This document shows, piece after piece, positions 6,083 through 34,730 of a stretch of DNA of 64,000 nt. Every line of letters starts with the position of its first letter. Positions within the stretch are counted from its first letter, which is position 1. The DNA comes from Escherichia coli (lineage in GTDB: Bacteria > Pseudomonadota > Gammaproteobacteria > Enterobacterales > Enterobacteriaceae), in NCBI RefSeq assembly GCF_030013595.1, contig NZ_CP122768.1; one strand, 5' to 3'. The notes beneath the pieces were generated by a model. It did not search any database, had not been told where the DNA came from, and saw nothing but the letters and a program-made list of their open reading frames with translations. Position numbers and translations under genes: made by a program.

Positions 6083-7974
<1,892 letters not shown>

Positions 7975-27863: not shown

Positions 27864-29436
27864 GTTCACAGATAAAACACTCTCCAGGAAACCCGGGGCG
27901 GTTCAACTCTTTTTTCTTCGCCGGGGTTAACTTGCTCCAGACGGTATTCAAATCAGAGTCAGCATTTGCAAATGCCATTCGGGACTGATCAAGGCTTTCA
28001 GATTTTTGCGGCTGAAGTTGTGCCTGCCTCTCTTTTTGCTTCTCCGCCTCATACCTGGCCTGTTCCTGTGCCCTGAGTTGCACCTGTTGTTCCGCTTCAA
28101 TTTGACTCTGTTGGGCATCCTTAGCCTGCTGGATTTTCTGCTGCTCAACGATCGGGTTGATAATGGAAAGCGATGTCAGTAAAGCGGCGCCCACTGATAT
28201 CGGATTATCAGAAGAGGTTTTTACAAAAACGTTTTTCTGATCGTCGGTCGCCTGCACGGTGTAGGTGATACGCCTTGAAAAGGCGTTTGCGTTGTTCTCC
28301 AAAAACAGATTTTCCATTTGCTTATCGAGATTACGATTAAAATTCTTTCTGTAAGCATCTGAAAGCTGGACGTACTCGTTCGCAGGTAGAGTCATCGTCA
28401 CGGTCCCTTCACAAGTTTTCATTGTGCTGCCCGTGTCACTTGATGTTGTGGAGATTTCAGAGACGGCTAGTTTGATCTTGTCCAGTGTGCTTCGTTTGGT
28501 CTGATTAGTGACATCAGGGTATTTATCGACCTGTTCAGAGAGTCCTTCATAAGCAGATTTTTTTAATAAATCCATGAGAGCTGATTGGGTCATTTCCGAA
28601 GAACAACCGATCTCATCTTTTTTGTTATCACAGCCTGTAAGGGCAATGGCGAGTAAGAGTACTGAGTATTTTAATCTCATGAATTCCCTTTAGAGTAAGG
28701 ATTGGTTTTTAAGACGCGGTCTGTAATCAGTTCCGAGAGCTACAGTAAACAACGCTGAGCACTGAACGCATCACAGGCAAGGTAAAAGGTGATATCGGCA
28801 AAGGCTGTGAAACCTTTAATTCAACAGATGGGAACGGTATGCACAGGATCCTGTAACGACGCTCCCAAAACTGGAAACCTGTAAGGCATGTTTTCGCTGC
28901 TGAACTTAATATACGAACCTGCACTATCATGAACATATTTTATATCGTTATACCCCGAGTGATTGTGCCCGGCAATGGATAGTGTCCTGGAGGAATTATT
29001 TCTAATGTAAAAGGAAGATATTTAATTTCGATGTGGGATTATTACCTGTCTATAAGAACAATGACTTTATCTGGCAGTAAGCAGACATCTATTAGCTTAC
29101 TGAAGGGGGGCTGTGATTTGACCATTAACGGCATGAGATATATTGTCTATTGGTGATTGTTCTGAGGCCGATATCACGTTAACGACCAAGTAAAATAACA
29201 TGAAAAATTATTTATTAATGATTGCCAGCATTAAATGTAGTGATACCTCATTAGCAGGGTGCTCCGCAATGACTGCGATGAACTAAAAAATCAGTCATAA
29301 CCATGAAAAAAACAAGTGTATCAGCGAAATTAAATCTGGTGAAAGCATTTAATTACTTGTTAATGACGCAATAAAAACATACTATGGAAATGTAACAGCT
29401 AATCTACAGTTCTTGTCAATAGGGGCGCACAAGAAA

Positions 29437-30027
29437 ATGTTAAATGAATTTAAGGAAAAGCTACTATCCGACGATATCCGCGATGTCTACCAACGATACC
29501 TTTTAGGACATGACATCTGGTATTTTCGGGAACAAAAAAAATCAATAACCTTTGCTAAAGATTATGATGAGTTTAAGCTATATATGTCTAAGAAGCTTGA
29601 AATTCATGTAAATAATATTGCAATTGTTGGAAGTGCTAAGATGGGATTCAGCTTGAGCCCTGATAAAAATTATCGAACATTTAACGATGAGTCAGATATA
29701 GACTTGGTTTTAGTATCCGACAGAATTTATAAATCTTCCTGGATGGCATTTATTGAATTACAATCAAAGAATTATTTGCCTGTATATGCTCCTGTAGCTA
29801 AAAATATTTTCAAAGGATTCGTGTCATTGAAGGAGTTAGATATTAGAGTCGATTTTTTTAATAAATGGTCCCGTAACGTTGAACCATTAAAAAAAGACAT
29901 TCAAACTATTTTTGGAATACCTAACGACATCAACTACAGAATTTATGACTCTTGGGAGTCCGTTGAACGCTATCACATAGCTGGGTTGAATAGTCTAAAA
30001 GATAAGTTACAAGGACAATTGATATGA
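29437..30027 (+). CDS. Nucleotidyltransferase-fold protein (Pol-beta superfamily signature), function unknown
   Basis: IAIVGSAKMGFSLSPDKNYRTFNDESDIDLVLVSD = hG[GS]...[DE]hDh motif; AT-rich; stop overlaps next start (ATGA); track ORF begins at TTG 29413. Confidence 0.5.
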   Translation: MLNEFKEKLLSDDIRDVYQRYLLGHDIWYFREQKKSITFAKDYDEFKLYMSKKLEIHVNNIAIVGSAKMGFSLSPDKNYRTFNDESDIDLVLVSDRIYKSSWMAFIELQSKNYLPVYAPVAKNIFKGFVSLKELDIRVDFFNKWSRNVEPLKKDIQTIFGIPNDINYRIYDSWESVERYHIAGLNSLKDKLQGQLI

Positions 30028-31082
30028 GAGCTATTGATCTAATTAAAGTTGAATCGAAAGACATTAAATGGTTGACGGATAATTTGAAATCAGGTGTTAT
30101 TACAGTTGATAATTCATATCAGAGAAAATATATCTGGCAGCAAAAAGACCAAGTGGCCTTAATTGAGACAATATTAATTGGCTACCCAATCCCTGAGATT
30201 TACCTTTGGGCAAATAATACTGATCCTGACACTGGAGATACTAAATATTCAATTGTAGATGGACAGCAAAGGCTAACCACAATCCAGCGATATTTAAATG
30301 ATGAGTTTAAGTTAAGCAAAGCAGCTATAGATGATAAAGAAGCCGACTATAGTGGGAAAATTTTTTCAGAATTGTCGGCAGATAACAAACGTGATTTTTG
30401 GCGATACCAATTCTCATCCAGATTTATTAATGAATCATTGAGATATGATGAGATTGCAAAGTTATTTTTACGTCTAAATAGAACAAATACTACGTTAAAT
30501 CCTCAAGAACTTCGTAATGCTGAATTTAATGGCGAGTTTTTAAGATTAGCCGAAGAAATTGCACAAAATGAATTTTGGGATAATTATAAGATATTTACTC
30601 AGTCAGATATCCGTCGGATGCAAGACATTCAATTCATCAGCACATTATTGATTTTCTTACGAATGGGTATTGAGCAGGATAATACACAAAAATCAATTAA
30701 TCGAGTGTATGATCAATACAATGAGAATTACCCTGAGGCGACTGAGGACAGAATTATCTTTAACGAAGTGTTAAGGATCATATCTCAAATTATCAACAAT
30801 AAACAAGTATTAGAATCAGTTGTAAAGAAAAAAGGCCATTTGTATTTTATATTTGTGCTGGCATACTATTATTTACAGCTTAGTAAATCTAAGCTTGTTG
30901 ATATGAATGTTATTAGTTCAAAGCTCGAGGATTTTTTTAATATTTATGAGTTAAATGAACAAGATAACCCCCATCCACTGGTTGAGGAATATAGATTCCT
31001 CAGCCAAGAGGGTTCAAAGAAGAGTCATAACAGACAGCGTAGATTTGATATTTTGAAAGAATTTTGCTCTTTACATGATTAA
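30024..31082 (+). CDS. DUF262 / ParB-like protein (GmrS-type N-domain only, no DUF1524/HNH half)
   Basis: YQRKYIW...IVDGQQRLTTI and ...LNRTNTTLNPQELRNAEF motifs typical of DUF262; 352 aa; AT-rich. Confidence 0.6.
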   Translation: MRAIDLIKVESKDIKWLTDNLKSGVITVDNSYQRKYIWQQKDQVALIETILIGYPIPEIYLWANNTDPDTGDTKYSIVDGQQRLTTIQRYLNDEFKLSKAAIDDKEADYSGKIFSELSADNKRDFWRYQFSSRFINESLRYDEIAKLFLRLNRTNTTLNPQELRNAEFNGEFLRLAEEIAQNEFWDNYKIFTQSDIRRMQDIQFISTLLIFLRMGIEQDNTQKSINRVYDQYNENYPEATEDRIIFNEVLRIISQIINNKQVLESVVKKKGHLYFIFVLAYYYLQLSKSKLVDMNVISSKLEDFFNIYELNEQDNPHPLVEEYRFLSQEGSKKSHNRQRRFDILKEFCSLHD

Positions 31083-31185
31083 ATGACGAAAGTGGGTTGT
31101 TTATAAGAATTGAATAAACAACCCATCATTTTAATGTACTCTGAATCCTCTCATTCTTAGTGAAATATTGTTTTTAGAACACGTA

Positions 31186-31603: not shown

Positions 31604-32152
31604 ATGTCGGAAGTGAGTATCGTAGAAGACGCCCCACGCCCAGTAGTCGCCGAATTGGCAGATCTGTTACAAGCACAACCATTTCATCAGAATCAATATG
31701 ATAACTTATGTCGCTTTATGATTTATTTTTCCCTGGCTGAATCAAAGTTAACATCAATGGCTGCTGGCCTTGGTAGAACTGACGCACTGGCACAGGAACT
31801 GGTTGTGCATAACGGCATGGACAGTCAGACCATAGATGATTGCTATCGTTATTTTATACGACGCTATCGAGACAGCCCTGATAGCGATTACCGCTTCAAT
31901 AAACTGGCCCCGCCTGAGTATGTTAAGAATGCAATCAGAGAACGCTTTGTTACGCTACTTCAGATACAGTCTCCAACAATTGAAGATAAAATCAGCTTTG
32001 TGTTCAAAGTGATTTTTAGGTTACGGCATAATCTTTTCCATGGAGAAAAATGGTCTTACAACCTCGAAGACCAGGAAGCTAATTTTTCACATGCCAGCAA
32101 TGTACTACTATCCTGTTTGACTCTTACTCGCGGGAGTATGTGGCACCCTTGA
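31604..32152 (+). CDS. HEPN-motif protein (putative RNase / abortive-infection-like effector)
   Basis: AAGGGAG RBS; 182 aa containing FRLRHNLFHGEK, which fits the Rx4-6H HEPN motif. Confidence 0.45.
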   Translation: MSEVSIVEDAPRPVVAELADLLQAQPFHQNQYDNLCRFMIYFSLAESKLTSMAAGLGRTDALAQELVVHNGMDSQTIDDCYRYFIRRYRDSPDSDYRFNKLAPPEYVKNAIRERFVTLLQIQSPTIEDKISFVFKVIFRLRHNLFHGEKWSYNLEDQEANFSHASNVLLSCLTLTRGSMWHP

Positions 32153-32403
32153 ATGCTGGATGGATATTACGTATCGTCTGATAAGGGGTATCCAGATGTG
32201 GCTTGCAAAGAATGCCTGAGCATGTCTGTTATCGCAGAGGCGATCCTGCGCAAGCAGCCAGCTGAGTACCTGCATCTAACGCAGACCAGCTGCTCTTAAA
32301 CCGACTTCATTATCAAACATTATTTATTTTTAGCGACTACTTACTACATCTAGTGGTAGCTGAAATAAAATAACCTGCATATAGTGATTTTCGTCGTTTA
32401 AGT

Positions 32404-32500
32404 GCTTGACAATTCTGCACATGGCATTTAACGGTGTCTGTGGTAAACTATCCACAGAATAGTCAACAGTGTTGGATTGTGGATAATCGCCGGATATATG
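32404..32500 (+). promoter_or_regulatory. Putative promoter with palindromic operators upstream of small gene
   Basis: TTGACA at 32404; perfect palindrome tctgtggtaaactatccacaga; second inverted repeat gttggattgtggataatc; strong RBS GGGAGG. Confidence 0.4.
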
Positions 32501-32510
32501 GGGAGGATAA

Positions 32511-32705
32511 ATGGCTAAATATGAACTTCGACCACTGTCAGATAGCCGTAAGGCTGACATTGCTCGCAGTGCATTAGCACAAAATAGAGCCCCTGCTAAG
32601 CCTACTGCTTCAATGTCCTCTGGCTCTGCTTCAATACAGAGATCACGAGATACTGCGCGAGTAATGATGGATCGTGCATTCAGGACAGTTGTAGCCAAAG
32701 GATAA
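32511..32705 (+). CDS. Small hypothetical protein (64 aa)
   Basis: Strong RBS gggaggataaATG; followed by a clean terminator. Confidence 0.45.
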   Translation: MAKYELRPLSDSRKADIARSALAQNRAPAKPTASMSSGSASIQRSRDTARVMMDRAFRTVVAKG

Positions 32706-32722
32706 TTTTACTTTAATTGATT

Positions 32723-32749
32723 AAAGCGCCTTTTTCTGGCGCTTTTTTA
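32723..32749 (+). terminator. Rho-independent terminator
   Basis: agcgcctttttctggcgct hairpin plus T-run. Confidence 0.6.
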
Positions 32750-32764
32750 TTGCGGAAAAACCAA

Positions 32765-33445
32765 ATGGAAAAGCTCTGGGTTTTTACTCAATTAGTTACA
32801 GGGAAAGATGACACATCTGGCTTTTTGGCTTACGCGCTCTATAAGCACGACAAAAATGAATATGCAGAGAAGTTGCGTAGTAGTGGCGAATATACAGAAG
32901 AAGATATTAACGCCCAACTGAAGATCTTTCATGAGCAGACAGTTAACTCGCCAGGCCGAATTGAGTCTTACAAAGAAAAAGCAGAAGCCATCGTCACAAA
33001 CTTAACAGACCAGATAGATGCTGATATCCGGCTTGAGTACGATGCACAGTTAGCCGGTGCTAACTTGCAGGATGTTGAAATAGAACGGCTGAAAGCAGAA
33101 ATACAGGCTATGAAAGCATCACGTGAGAGCGAGCTAAGGAAGGCTGGAGAGGATGCTATTCTCAATTTTCATCGCATGGTTGAAATCACCCAGGCACGCA
33201 AACGTGGGCGTGTTTCCCGCTCGTTAGGATGGTACTGGAATGGGTTTGCCAGCATTTTCGCCACAATAACCTTCGCTGTCATTGTCTATGGTATTTGTAC
33301 TTGGGCATTGCCACAAAAATCCAGAGACGACATTGTGGATGGAGCGTTTAAAAATCTACAGGGATCGTTATTCCAACAGCCAAACATTCAATTTAATAAA
33401 GACAAAAACGAGAACGCTCAGCAACCTAACACAAGTGCCGAATAG
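32765..33445 (+). CDS. Coiled-coil protein with C-terminal transmembrane helix
   Basis: Start at MEKLWVFTQ after the terminator; hydrophobic segment GFASIFATITFAVIVYGICTW; track ORF begins at 32717 inside the terminator. Confidence 0.45.
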   Translation: MEKLWVFTQLVTGKDDTSGFLAYALYKHDKNEYAEKLRSSGEYTEEDINAQLKIFHEQTVNSPGRIESYKEKAEAIVTNLTDQIDADIRLEYDAQLAGANLQDVEIERLKAEIQAMKASRESELRKAGEDAILNFHRMVEITQARKRGRVSRSLGWYWNGFASIFATITFAVIVYGICTWALPQKSRDDIVDGAFKNLQGSLFQQPNIQFNKDKNENAQQPNTSAE

Positions 33446-33622
33446 TATCCCCGCGATGCTCCGGTAGCCTCACCATCTCGCGGGGCTTGCCTTTCCAGGT
33501 GATTGACATGATTACCAGTTTCTGAATACCGTTTTCAACGGTACTGAGCACCCAGGTGACGGTGAAACGTGAAGAATATCGCACCTTATTAAAGGTGCAG
33601 CCCCTCAAAAGAGGGGCTATTC

Positions 33623-33856
33623 TCACTTCTGCAGTATCTCGCCAATACCTGCCAGGTTCTCATCCATCTTGTCACCGTTTTCGATAAGGATGGAGTTGAG
33701 CCGATTCAGTTGCATAGCAATTTCAAGTTTGATTAAAGTATCTACCGATACATCAGTTTCTTTTGCTAACTTAGTAAGAGCCTCAGCCCGATTGGCTAAA
33801 TTAAAATCATCGAACTCATAACGACTTCTGCACGGCTGGTTGCCTAACGTACCCAT
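33623..33856 (-). CDS. Hypothetical small protein (77 aa)
   Basis: Minus-strand ORF with GAGGAA RBS; hairpin gcccctcaaaagaggggc just downstream of its stop. Confidence 0.4.
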   Translation of the reverse strand: MGTLGNQPCRSRYEFDDFNLANRAEALTKLAKETDVSVDTLIKLEIAMQLNRLNSILIENGDKMDENLAGIGEILQK

Positions 33857-34097
33857 AGTGATTCCTCATGATATAAAGACCCAACAATATAAATTACCAG
33901 GCACATCATAAGATAGGGGCCCAGCCCATATTTTCAAATATTTGCAAGTATCACCGTTCAGTCTAAAAACTTGGATGGTTGTTTCACGAGTCATAACAAA
34001 ACCCTGACTCGGCGGGTTTTCTTTTTATAGAACTCTGCGATGCGACAACGAATAATAAATTGTGCAAATAGTGCTGTTTTTATTATTCGAGGTGGAT

Positions 34098-34730
34098 ATG
34101 AGATCATTCTATGAGGACTGGCCTGAAACGTTTGTCACCCGACTTGACATGCTGCGGGCGCTGGATAACCGGGGGGCAACCCGGAGACTCTACACAAAAC
34201 GTACAGGGGCGATTTACAACGCGCTGGCAGACGAGGTTCGTGAGGCTGTGACTGGATTCAATACCAGTGAACTCGACTTAGGACCACTCTACCGGTATTA
34301 CAAACGTGGAGGAGAGAGCGACGCGCTGGCAGACACACTGATCGCACTGGCGCCGACTGTGTGCAGGCGCGTAATGATTTCCCCTGACGTATATACAATA
34401 CCGTACCTGTTTTTTGCGCTGTTGATAGCGCGAGGAGAGGACGACGATGCACGTGATTTTTTCAATATGATGATGCGGCCACTAATCGTGGCGTACCGGT
34501 TCAAACAACTGGCGCGTTATCTGGGAACAAAGGGCGGAGGGAGGCCACAGCACAGGCTAAAAGACGAGGCATTACAGATTGCAGAGGTTTTTTTCACAAA
34601 TAATCCCCACGCACGGGTTAGTGCGGCGGTGGCACGTATTAACGAAATTCTCGTAAAAAAATATGCTGACGTTCCGGCGGAGTCAACTATTAGAAAATGG
34701 TTAACCCATGTTTATGGAAATGAAAAATAA
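34098..34730 (+). CDS. Hypothetical protein (210 aa)
   Basis: RBS gaggtggatATG; track ORF extends upstream from a GTG at 34062. Confidence 0.45.
   Translation: MRSFYEDWPETFVTRLDMLRALDNRGATRRLYTKRTGAIYNALADEVREAVTGFNTSELDLGPLYRYYKRGGESDALADTLIALAPTVCRRVMISPDVYTIPYLFFALLIARGEDDDARDFFNMMMRPLIVAYRFKQLARYLGTKGGGRPQHRLKDEALQIAEVFFTNNPHARVSAAVARINEILVKKYADVPAESTIRKWLTHVYGNEK

Follow-up and report, generated by a model that had tools for sequence, protein, structure and literature searches.

A small gene followed closely by a gene for a membrane protein raises the question of whether the two belong together and, if they do, what they contribute to the element that carries them. We asked this of a locus in a 64,000-nucleotide (nt) stretch of Escherichia coli DNA (NCBI RefSeq assembly GCF_030013595.1, contig NZ_CP122768.1), which is called the window below. 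The first gene, S, occupies positions 32511-32705 on the plus strand and encodes a protein of 64 amino acids (aa) with a net charge of +8. The second, B, lies at 32765-33445 on the same strand and encodes a 226-aa protein, entered in RefSeq as a "hypothetical protein" (WP_064226194.1). A preliminary description of this DNA had taken the small gene for an autonomous unit. We found instead that S and B form a bicistronic cassette, a conserved and mobile two-gene operon that is kept together with a hairpin between the genes and no room there for a separate promoter. The window is a lambdoid E. coli prophage, and the S/B cassette sits in its variable nin cargo region. As for function, we tentatively read the pair as a defense, abortive-infection or toxin-antitoxin (TA)-like module, in which a scarce membrane effector is kept under an abundant small partner. 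We place it among conflict modules because of its genomic company and the architecture of its proteins.

The gene pair and its intergenic hairpin

Of 24 loci, 23 have a homologue of S, 58-121 aa long, directly 5' of a homologue of B, and this holds down to about 20% identity. In the 24th (L050), a 126-aa gene occupies the position of S; it lacks the C-terminal motif of the small proteins and may be a divergent S. Every B homologue with 71-97% identity to that of the window has an open reading frame (ORF) of 61-64 aa located 55-59 nt upstream. The carriers of these close homologues were RepL/Rep3 and IncFII plasmids, a Pantoea Rep3 plasmid, a Pantoea megaplasmid and a Pectobacterium chromosome. 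More distant B homologues (18-49% identity) were collected by tblastn against plasmids, a scan of IMG/VR, a genome scan and an exhaustive profile search. The bicistronic layout with the small gene first, which is one criterion for a type II TA module, is found in this pair.

Between the two genes lies a hairpin that resembles an intrinsic terminator (32723-32745, plus strand; AAAGCGCC-7-GGCGCTTT), followed by a T-tract that extends to 32751. Its 8-bp stem with five G-C pairs, its 7-nt loop and TTTTTTATT are the sequence features of a Rho-independent terminator, as had been proposed when the small gene was first described, and its minimum free energy is -13.6 kcal/mol (z = -3.35). Rfam returned only a sub-threshold small RNA match, which lies over this terminator. 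Hairpins of this kind were present between S and B in 15 of 20 non-redundant loci, compared to 2.5% of shuffled intergenic sequences, and L010 provides a sixteenth case, with a strong hairpin (z = -4.0) and a short T-run. The stems differ by clade, with at least six versions (GCGCC, GCACCAT, TGCCGC, CGCCCC, GCCCC and GCCCCT). Wherever such a hairpin is present, it occupies a constant position and ends 14-23 nt before the start of B, and comparison of the loci revealed no conserved promoter in that interval. Since this geometry leaves no room for a promoter, we infer that B is reached by read-through only. The need for read-through in turn suggests that the hairpin is an attenuator, which would set the S:B ratio and keep B scarce relative to S. 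Colicin operons have an internal terminator before the lysis gene, which is carried by read-through transcripts only. The S/B cassette resembles them in having a predicted membrane-acting gene 3' of an intrinsic terminator inside an operon, but the genes and the biology are different, and S encodes no colicin or immunity protein.

A good terminator after S, together with the weak ribosome-binding region that B has of its own, could also mean that S and B are transcribed independently, S as an autonomous small gene and B as an unrelated gene for a membrane protein. We consider this very improbable. The genes stand together in 24 of 24 loci that span about 20-100% identity and all kinds of elements, the short interval between hairpin and B holds no conserved promoter, and the two genes of L035 are separated by only 22 nt with no hairpin at all.

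The extent of the cassette was estimated from both ends. Similarity between copies in different contexts starts at about 32335, and the left end of the conserved part (32343-32386, plus strand) consists of two non-coding blocks, ACTACATCTAG at 32343-32353 and CATATAGTG at 32378-32386, in an alignment of six copies. On the right, a possible cassette-closing terminator was seen at 33450-33486 on the plus strand (CCCCGCGA ... TCGCGGGG); its loop measures 21 nt and its T-rich tail is weak. This hairpin is weakly supported and was missed by the terminator scan, its loop being longer than 8 nt. In other copies (L004 and L005, for example), the 50 nt or so after the B stop codon contain a GC hairpin that differs from this one and has a T-run. 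The cassette thus appears to measure about 1.15 kb (approximately 32335-33490) and to carry its own signals.

Three copies have a B gene that is broken by frameshift or truncation next to an intact S (L016, 3986-4703; L037, 4989-5522; L040, 4986-5207), and the reverse was never seen. This recurrent loss of B fits a costly downstream gene, in what is a small sample.

The two proteins

The 64-aa ORF proposed in the preliminary description is a genuine gene, since its indels are in frame, its variable sites favor the third codon position and the ORF on the opposite strand is broken in homologues. The linker of the protein varies in sequence and by whole codons. The variable sites in the first 24 codons number 4, 9 and 15 at codon positions 1, 2 and 3, respectively. 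The antisense ORF (122 aa; 32330-32698) was discarded as spurious, as stop codons interrupt it in homologues. The strong ribosome-binding site that had been described is also present, with the Shine-Dalgarno sequence GGAGG at 32502-32506 (plus strand), 4 nt before the ATG, and GGGGAGGA at this site is conserved in the alignment of six copies. RefSeq does not annotate S in any of the three E. coli records that were read (L001-L003) among seven matching records. S is likewise unannotated in L010 (4767-4943), L048 (7755-7937), L052 (6743-6919) and L014, where it falls in an intergenic region.

The S protein is conserved toward both ends, in an N-terminal segment (about aa 3-24) and an amphipathic C-terminal helix (about aa 45-62), and has a variable linker of low complexity between them. 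Close homologues are nearly identical over the first 24 residues and keep the C-terminal ..MMDRAFR.. helix. In distant homologues the N-terminal pattern is ..[RK].[LM]P.[LI][ST]..E.[RK].I...A[LV]A.., followed by a basic low-complexity linker and a C-terminal ..F..[AS]F..[VA][RK]K helix. The homologues are basic throughout (+2 to +14), with about 50% S/T/A/G/P/Q/N, and a profile of the S proteins found 32 further "hypothetical" proteins of 62-118 aa. The small protein of L042 (121 aa; 7582-7947) contains an internal tandem duplication of GVQKSLAGS[AV]LSQSEGRN, which points to expansion by repeats in the stretch just ahead of the C-terminal helix.

S is predicted to be mostly disordered. In an AlphaFold model of an S-S-B fusion it formed two helices and no strands, with a predicted local distance difference test score (pLDDT) below 45; at this low confidence for S, the model neither supports nor contradicts an S-B complex. 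No DNA-binding fold (ribbon-helix-helix, helix-turn-helix, AbrB or Phd) was found in S with Pfam, PHROGs, the PDB profile search, hhalign or the tandem model. A seeming likeness to Arc, a strand-plus-first-helix segment and then a second helix, had given rise to the idea that S is a split ribbon-helix-helix repressor with a long insertion. This idea was rejected, since no hhalign comparison with Arc, CopG or ParG reached a probability of 1% and no strand pairing was seen. Two possible signs of an S-B match were also dropped. Charge complementarity does not hold across the family, as the net charge of the cytoplasmic part of B is negative in the clade of the window but positive in others, and no correlation was found between the length of the S linker and that of the B helix.

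B starts at the ATG at 32765, as it does in RefSeq and in all homologues (MEKLWVF...). The TTG at 32717 was rejected as the start; the extension would cross the terminator. The coiled-coil protein with a C-terminal membrane helix that had been described is otherwise borne out. The AlphaFold model of B has a mean pLDDT of 70, with values above 80 at residues 10-130. Helices were modeled at residues 17-40 and 45-61, followed by a continuous helix of about 90 residues (63-153) whose start is the third of the N-terminal helices, a hydrophobic helix (162-181), an amphipathic helix (185-202) and then a polar tail. The single membrane helix corresponds to aa 162-182 (nt 33248-33310, plus strand). A conserved N-terminal helical domain covers aa 1-95, with W5, Y23, Y26, K27, K30 and H56 invariant; the full set of invariant or near-invariant residues adds V6, F7 and A34 as well as G160 and A166, which sit at the entrance of the membrane helix. 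A domain of about 160 residues without a signal peptide is not normally translocated, and for this reason the N-terminal part of B is taken as cytoplasmic.

The exhaustive profile search, with clustering at 50% identity, gave 628 cluster representatives for the B family at E ≤ 0.001, of which 153 were at E ≤ 1e-10. All are about 170-290 aa long and of uniform architecture, and no fusion of the N-terminal domain to other (effector) domains was found in the family. S, six S variants, B and 88 relatives of B were then compared with Pfam, PHROGs, PADLOC and NCBIfam. B and its 88 relatives had no match in Pfam (E ≤ 0.01), NCBIfam or PADLOC and no sequence match in the PDB. These results place B in no known toxin superfamily, and no Pfam family for SieB or another described superinfection-exclusion protein was matched. 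The PHROGs matches were all to families of unknown function (25194 and 22648 for B, 34496 for the long variants of S). Profile searches of the PDB with B and S returned nothing below E = 0.007, and the weak matches, to alpha-helical pore-forming toxins and colicins and to KorA, were treated as compositional. Neither S nor B matched PADLOC-DB 2.0, in a scan whose positive control, the match of a DUF262 protein of the window to NsnA (4e-41), worked. Twelve RefSeq accessions for S, B and homologues are absent from the DefensePredictor supplements, and literature and accession searches returned nothing on the S/B family. These homology and structure searches of both proteins matched no phage housekeeping function.

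The promoter region

The region 5' of S is better conserved over 170 bp than the S linker itself, and CATATAGT is invariant in six copies from unrelated contexts. The preliminary description placed a TTGACA promoter in this region. The perfect -35 hexamer is indeed there (32406-32411, plus strand), but no -10 element lies at 16-18 bp, where the hexamer faces TTAACG, TAACGG or AACGGT, and a consensus promoter scan made no call. The only good -10 is the extended -10 TGgTAAACT (32441-32449, plus strand; TAAACT at 32444-32449), at a distance of 32 bp from TTGACA, which is not canonical sigma-70 spacing. The sequence TGTG.TAAACT is invariant in six copies, its sole variable base being the "n" of TGn, and TGaTAAACT or TGtTAGACT occurs 5' of S in other clades. 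It is plausible that the S promoter is this extended -10 rather than the TTGACA pair. TTGACA is kept in five of six close copies, and the exact 32-bp distance from TAAACT recurs even in a Providencia copy (L048).

The extended -10 is enclosed by an inverted repeat, TCTGTGG-N8-CCACAGA (32437-32443 and 32452-32458, plus strand). The palindrome therefore overlaps the -10 as had been described, but it is not perfect; two 7-nt arms flank an 8-nt center, TAAACTAT, and there is no perfect 22-mer. The repeat brackets the extended -10/+1 region and is a candidate operator, whose partner could be S, DnaA or a CRP-family protein. Its right arm is degenerate in L008. Inverted repeats occur at or near the promoters of several clades, with clade-specific sequences.

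If S were the partner, the pair could be an anti-sigma-like switch, in which S is a nucleic-acid-binding autorepressor at the inverted repeat and B sequesters S until an envelope or infection signal frees it. S is polybasic, the repeat over the -10 is conserved and other clades have palindromes of their own. In single-pass anti-sigma factors of the RseA type, an N-terminal helical domain in the cytoplasm is followed by a single membrane helix and a short extracytoplasmic tail. B has the same topology and domain order, its gene follows that of a small partner, and two family members have weak NCBIfam anti-sigma matches (E = 2.7e-4). However, S is no sigma factor, an anti-sigma domain was detected in no family member beyond these two weak matches, and S has no recognizable DNA-binding fold. 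No target regulon is evident, and the cassette moves alone between unrelated elements. Moreover, an excess of S over B is the reverse of what sequestration requires. We therefore regard such a switch as distinctly unlikely.

A different explanation is that a host factor and not S controls the promoter. The sequence TTATCCACA, a perfect DnaA-box consensus, lies at 32478-32486 on the minus strand, in the presumed 5' leader of S. It satisfies the definition of a DnaA box used here, a 9-mer matching TTATCCACA or TTWTNCACA. It is the only perfect match in the window and is invariant in six close copies, which come from E. coli, Pantoea, Pectobacterium and two metagenomic plasmid contigs. A one-mismatch box is found at 32448-32456 (plus strand), 22 bp from the perfect one. 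In all, there are three TGTGGWTAR 9-mers: TGTGGTAAA, TGTGGATAG (read on the minus strand; the one-mismatch box) and the invariant TGTGGATAA at 32478-32486. DnaA could act at these three 9-mers, or a CRP-family protein could act at TGTGN-N8-NCACA, which would couple expression to the state of replication or metabolism. A G-to-A change in L004 and L007 hits the degenerate position of the DnaA box. These two copies have TGTGA, and L048 has TCACA. On the other hand, DnaA-like 9-mers are not enriched in the window (20 versus 13.7 expected; 7 of 100 shuffled sequences had at least 20), neither the Providencia copy nor any other clade has the DnaA box, L008 has lost the right-hand box and an 8-bp spacer is atypical for CRP. 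Host-factor control is, in our judgment, a minority possibility; it concerns regulation only and fits any function of B.

Other pairings in this region were considered. The segment at 32478-32486 forms an 8-bp complement with 32449-32456, and the repeat and DnaA-box segments could form alternative hairpins in the RNA. An RNA leader structure or riboswitch was rejected, however, as folding was not significantly better than that of shuffled sequences (z = -1.8 and -0.4). A 12-nt inverted repeat, TTGACAATTCTG / CAGAATAGTCAA, spans the promoter region (32406-32466) with 11 of 12 positions complementary. It was rejected as a functional pairing, not being kept in L004 or L007.

Genomic company and a possible role in conflict

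The pair is carried by a wide range of mobile elements. It occurs in the nin regions of two lambdoid types (E. coli and Phytobacter, L047), in P1-like IncY phage-plasmids, in IncF and Rep3 plasmids and in an integrative and conjugative element (ICE) of the MPF_G type. Further settings are a Tn7-like element at glmS, integrase-bearing islands and small chromosomal islets. The homologues of identified source come from Enterobacterales, with one from Photobacterium and one from Vreelandella, and there are many metagenomic members besides. In the lambdoid nin region, the cassette is a horizontally mobile accessory operon of the "moron" type.

Company was taken as the genes within 5 kb of the pair. 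In L042, a type II CBASS lies on one side and a cluster of TerB, BrxC-like and DEAD-helicase genes on the other. The pair adjoins a gene for a 1275-aa SIR2 protein in an integrase island in L043 and L044. A distant copy lies at the end of the Tn7-like element (TnsE_C) inserted next to glmS (L052/L053), and L052 has CAP12-PCTIR TIR genes and a QueC/PfkB-deoxyribosyltransferase cluster as neighbors. Zeta toxin, DUF3800 and TacAT genes neighbor L004; dcm with DUF4928, HNH and DUF3800 genes neighbor L013. ParDE is found next to L008, MazEF next to L010, a GIY-YIG protein next to L005 and RhuM next to L048. This is the pattern of accessory conflict cargo, a statement about the neighbors seen and not about enrichment over background. 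The guess in the preliminary description that the locus is superinfection-exclusion or abortive-infection cargo fits this company (CBASS, SIR2, TIR, DUF262/GmrSD, Zeta, ParDE, MazEF, Tn7 and two nin regions), with function itself hypothetical. Likewise, its layout of a small protein and a membrane protein in prophage cargo stands, but the term "regulator" for the small protein is unsupported, as no DNA-binding fold was found in it.

In an annotated relative (L001), the prophage adjoins tRNA-Leu and the cassette region lies between the replication genes and the genes for NinB (DUF1367), Rus (DUF1364) and Q. Three related prophages share the cassette block and have different cargo 5' of it. The shared block begins with a 182-aa ORF and an unannotated gap, continues with the 226-aa ORF and ends with ORFs of 77 aa (minus strand) and 222 aa. 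The DUF262/NsnA-like gene of the window lies 1.7 kb 5' of the cassette. This 352-aa DUF262/GmrSD_N gene and a 204-aa ORF (phrog_32008) together cover 29413-31082 on the plus strand with a 4-nt overlap, and its protein matches PADLOC NsnA (4e-41) and PD-T4-2_A (2.5e-19). The two genes look like a type IV-restriction-like defense pair in the same nin cargo slot. In strain HCP5S3_I2, an IS3-family insertion separates the DUF262 gene from the 182-aa ORF (L001, 17560-18788); the window has no such insertion at the equivalent site (about 31178-31184).

The 182-aa ORF, ORF182 (31604-32152, plus strand; phrog_27260, unknown function), accompanies the S/B cassette in the E. coli prophages (L001-L003) only. 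Its RLRHNLFH (Rx4H) motif prompted the idea of a HEPN RNase, which was dropped as neither Pfam nor the PDB backs the assignment. On the right flank of the cassette are two conserved lambdoid nin-region genes of unknown function (phrog_5550, phrog_5215) at 33623-33856 on the minus strand and 34062-34730 on the plus strand. The minus-strand gene has a terminator-like hairpin of its own at 33580-33599. The holin and endolysin genes of the prophage lie about 4 kb downstream of B, after Q. B does not have the features of a holin; it is 226 aa long with a cytoplasmic part of about 160 aa and is encoded away from the lysis cassette.

A housekeeping role in phage or plasmid biology, such as lysis, morphogenesis or partition, is scarcely probable. 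The pair follows baseplate and tail genes in P1-like phage-plasmids, and in some plasmids it has replication or partition genes nearby. Against this, it is also present in elements of wholly different life styles and in bare chromosomal islets, and the prophage has a separate lysis cassette. The query region was matched in only 7 of 5426 complete E. coli genomes (96-99.8% identity). Also, tblastn with B of the window and B of a P1-like plasmid gave no match in a phage collection of 50,697 records, in which the presence of P1 and lambda was unchecked by name.

The nature of the carriers also brings up superinfection or entry exclusion, in which B would block the entry of phage or conjugative DNA without cell death and S would be a regulator or cofactor. 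Prophages, P1-like phage-plasmids, conjugative plasmids and ICEs all gain from exclusion. B is a single-pass protein that may possibly act through its short periplasmic amphipathic helix, and this post-membrane helix is conserved in character across clades. However, there is no likeness to the SieA/SieB, Imm, Sim, TraS/TraT or Eex families, and most of B is cytoplasmic, including its best-conserved part. The pair is also found in chromosomal islets and Tn7 cargo that have no transfer apparatus of their own, and the repeated inactivation of B suggests a cost. Exclusion is thus unlikely.

Comparison with known systems points to similarities in layout and to differences in the proteins. Like type II TA modules, S/B is a two-gene operon with a small, partly disordered upstream protein that is predicted to be in excess over the downstream one, has an inverted repeat over the promoter, is mobile among plasmid, prophage and defense-island cargo, and has a downstream gene that is recurrently inactivated. 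Unlike these modules, which include the ParDE and MazEF neighbors of L008 and L010, S and B are not homologous to toxin or antitoxin families and S has no DNA-binding fold that we could find. The S:B ratio is apparently set by an internal terminator and not by translational coupling. Furthermore, B is a C-terminally anchored coiled-coil membrane protein of 200-240 aa whose toxicity is only hypothesized. Lambda RexA/RexB is a two-component prophage defense, expressed from the lysogen, that is proposed to collapse the membrane potential on infection, and RexB has four membrane helices. The mycobacteriophage Sbash gp30/gp31 is a two-component defense expressed from the lysogen, for which loss of membrane potential on infection is proposed (PMC6426596). 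Both are gene pairs of prophage cargo with one membrane protein, as S/B is, but there is no similarity of sequence or fold, S is a tiny, disordered, basic protein and not a folded sensor, and B has one membrane helix compared to the four of RexB. PdpSau is an abortive-infection protein of Staphylococcus aureus prophages that is associated with changes in membrane polarity and permeability on infection; like B, it is accessory prophage cargo, has a single membrane helix and lies largely in the cytoplasm. In contrast to B, to which it is not homologous, it has an N-terminal anchor and a positive C terminus and is encoded by a single gene (PMC10127798). S/B is a member of none of the type II TA, RexAB, Sbash gp30/gp31 or PdpSau families, and by sequence comparison it is unrelated to any described family.

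Several observations weigh against a conflict module. The copies in L007 and L049 lie among ordinary metabolic genes, and the company of defense genes is a plain listing of neighbors. Five of the 20 loci have no terminator. The charges beside the membrane helix of B leave its topology undecided, with K+R averaging 1.97 before the helix and 2.27 after it (88 sequences). In the S-S-B fusion model, neither an S-B complex nor a DNA-binding S dimer finds support, and the hhalign probabilities for S against Arc, CopG and ParG, named above, are equally unfavorable.

With these points in mind, a conflict module would work as follows. S and B would both be transcribed from the promoter region 5' of S, and partial termination at the hairpin would leave S in excess and B low. 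B would be a single-pass coiled-coil inner-membrane protein and a potentially harmful effector, which may oligomerize through its long helix and a membrane helix rich in small residues. The basic, largely disordered S would restrain B, either by direct binding or by repression of the promoter at the inverted repeat. B would be set free when S is lost or titrated away, or by a phage cue. A more specific version, which we hold with less confidence, is that S/B is a new, widespread two-gene conflict family in which the excess of S made by the attenuator checks the C-terminally anchored B until infection or loss of the element frees it. Within this version, one clade possibly has an input from replication status through DnaA.

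Uncharacterized two-gene cargo is common in prophage hot spots, and the finding here is bigger than an isolated small ORF, as it concerns an unannotated partner gene and a widespread uncharacterized pair. The standard pipeline skips the first gene in many genomes, an annotation gap that hides the operon and would mislead guilt-by-association screens, and current tools such as PADLOC and Pfam miss the S/B family. The internal terminator would be a simple example of control of stoichiometry at the level of transcription for a dangerous membrane protein. If the pair is a defense or addiction module, it would add to the catalogue a widely distributed family of about 1.1 kb in which both proteins are unlike anything described.

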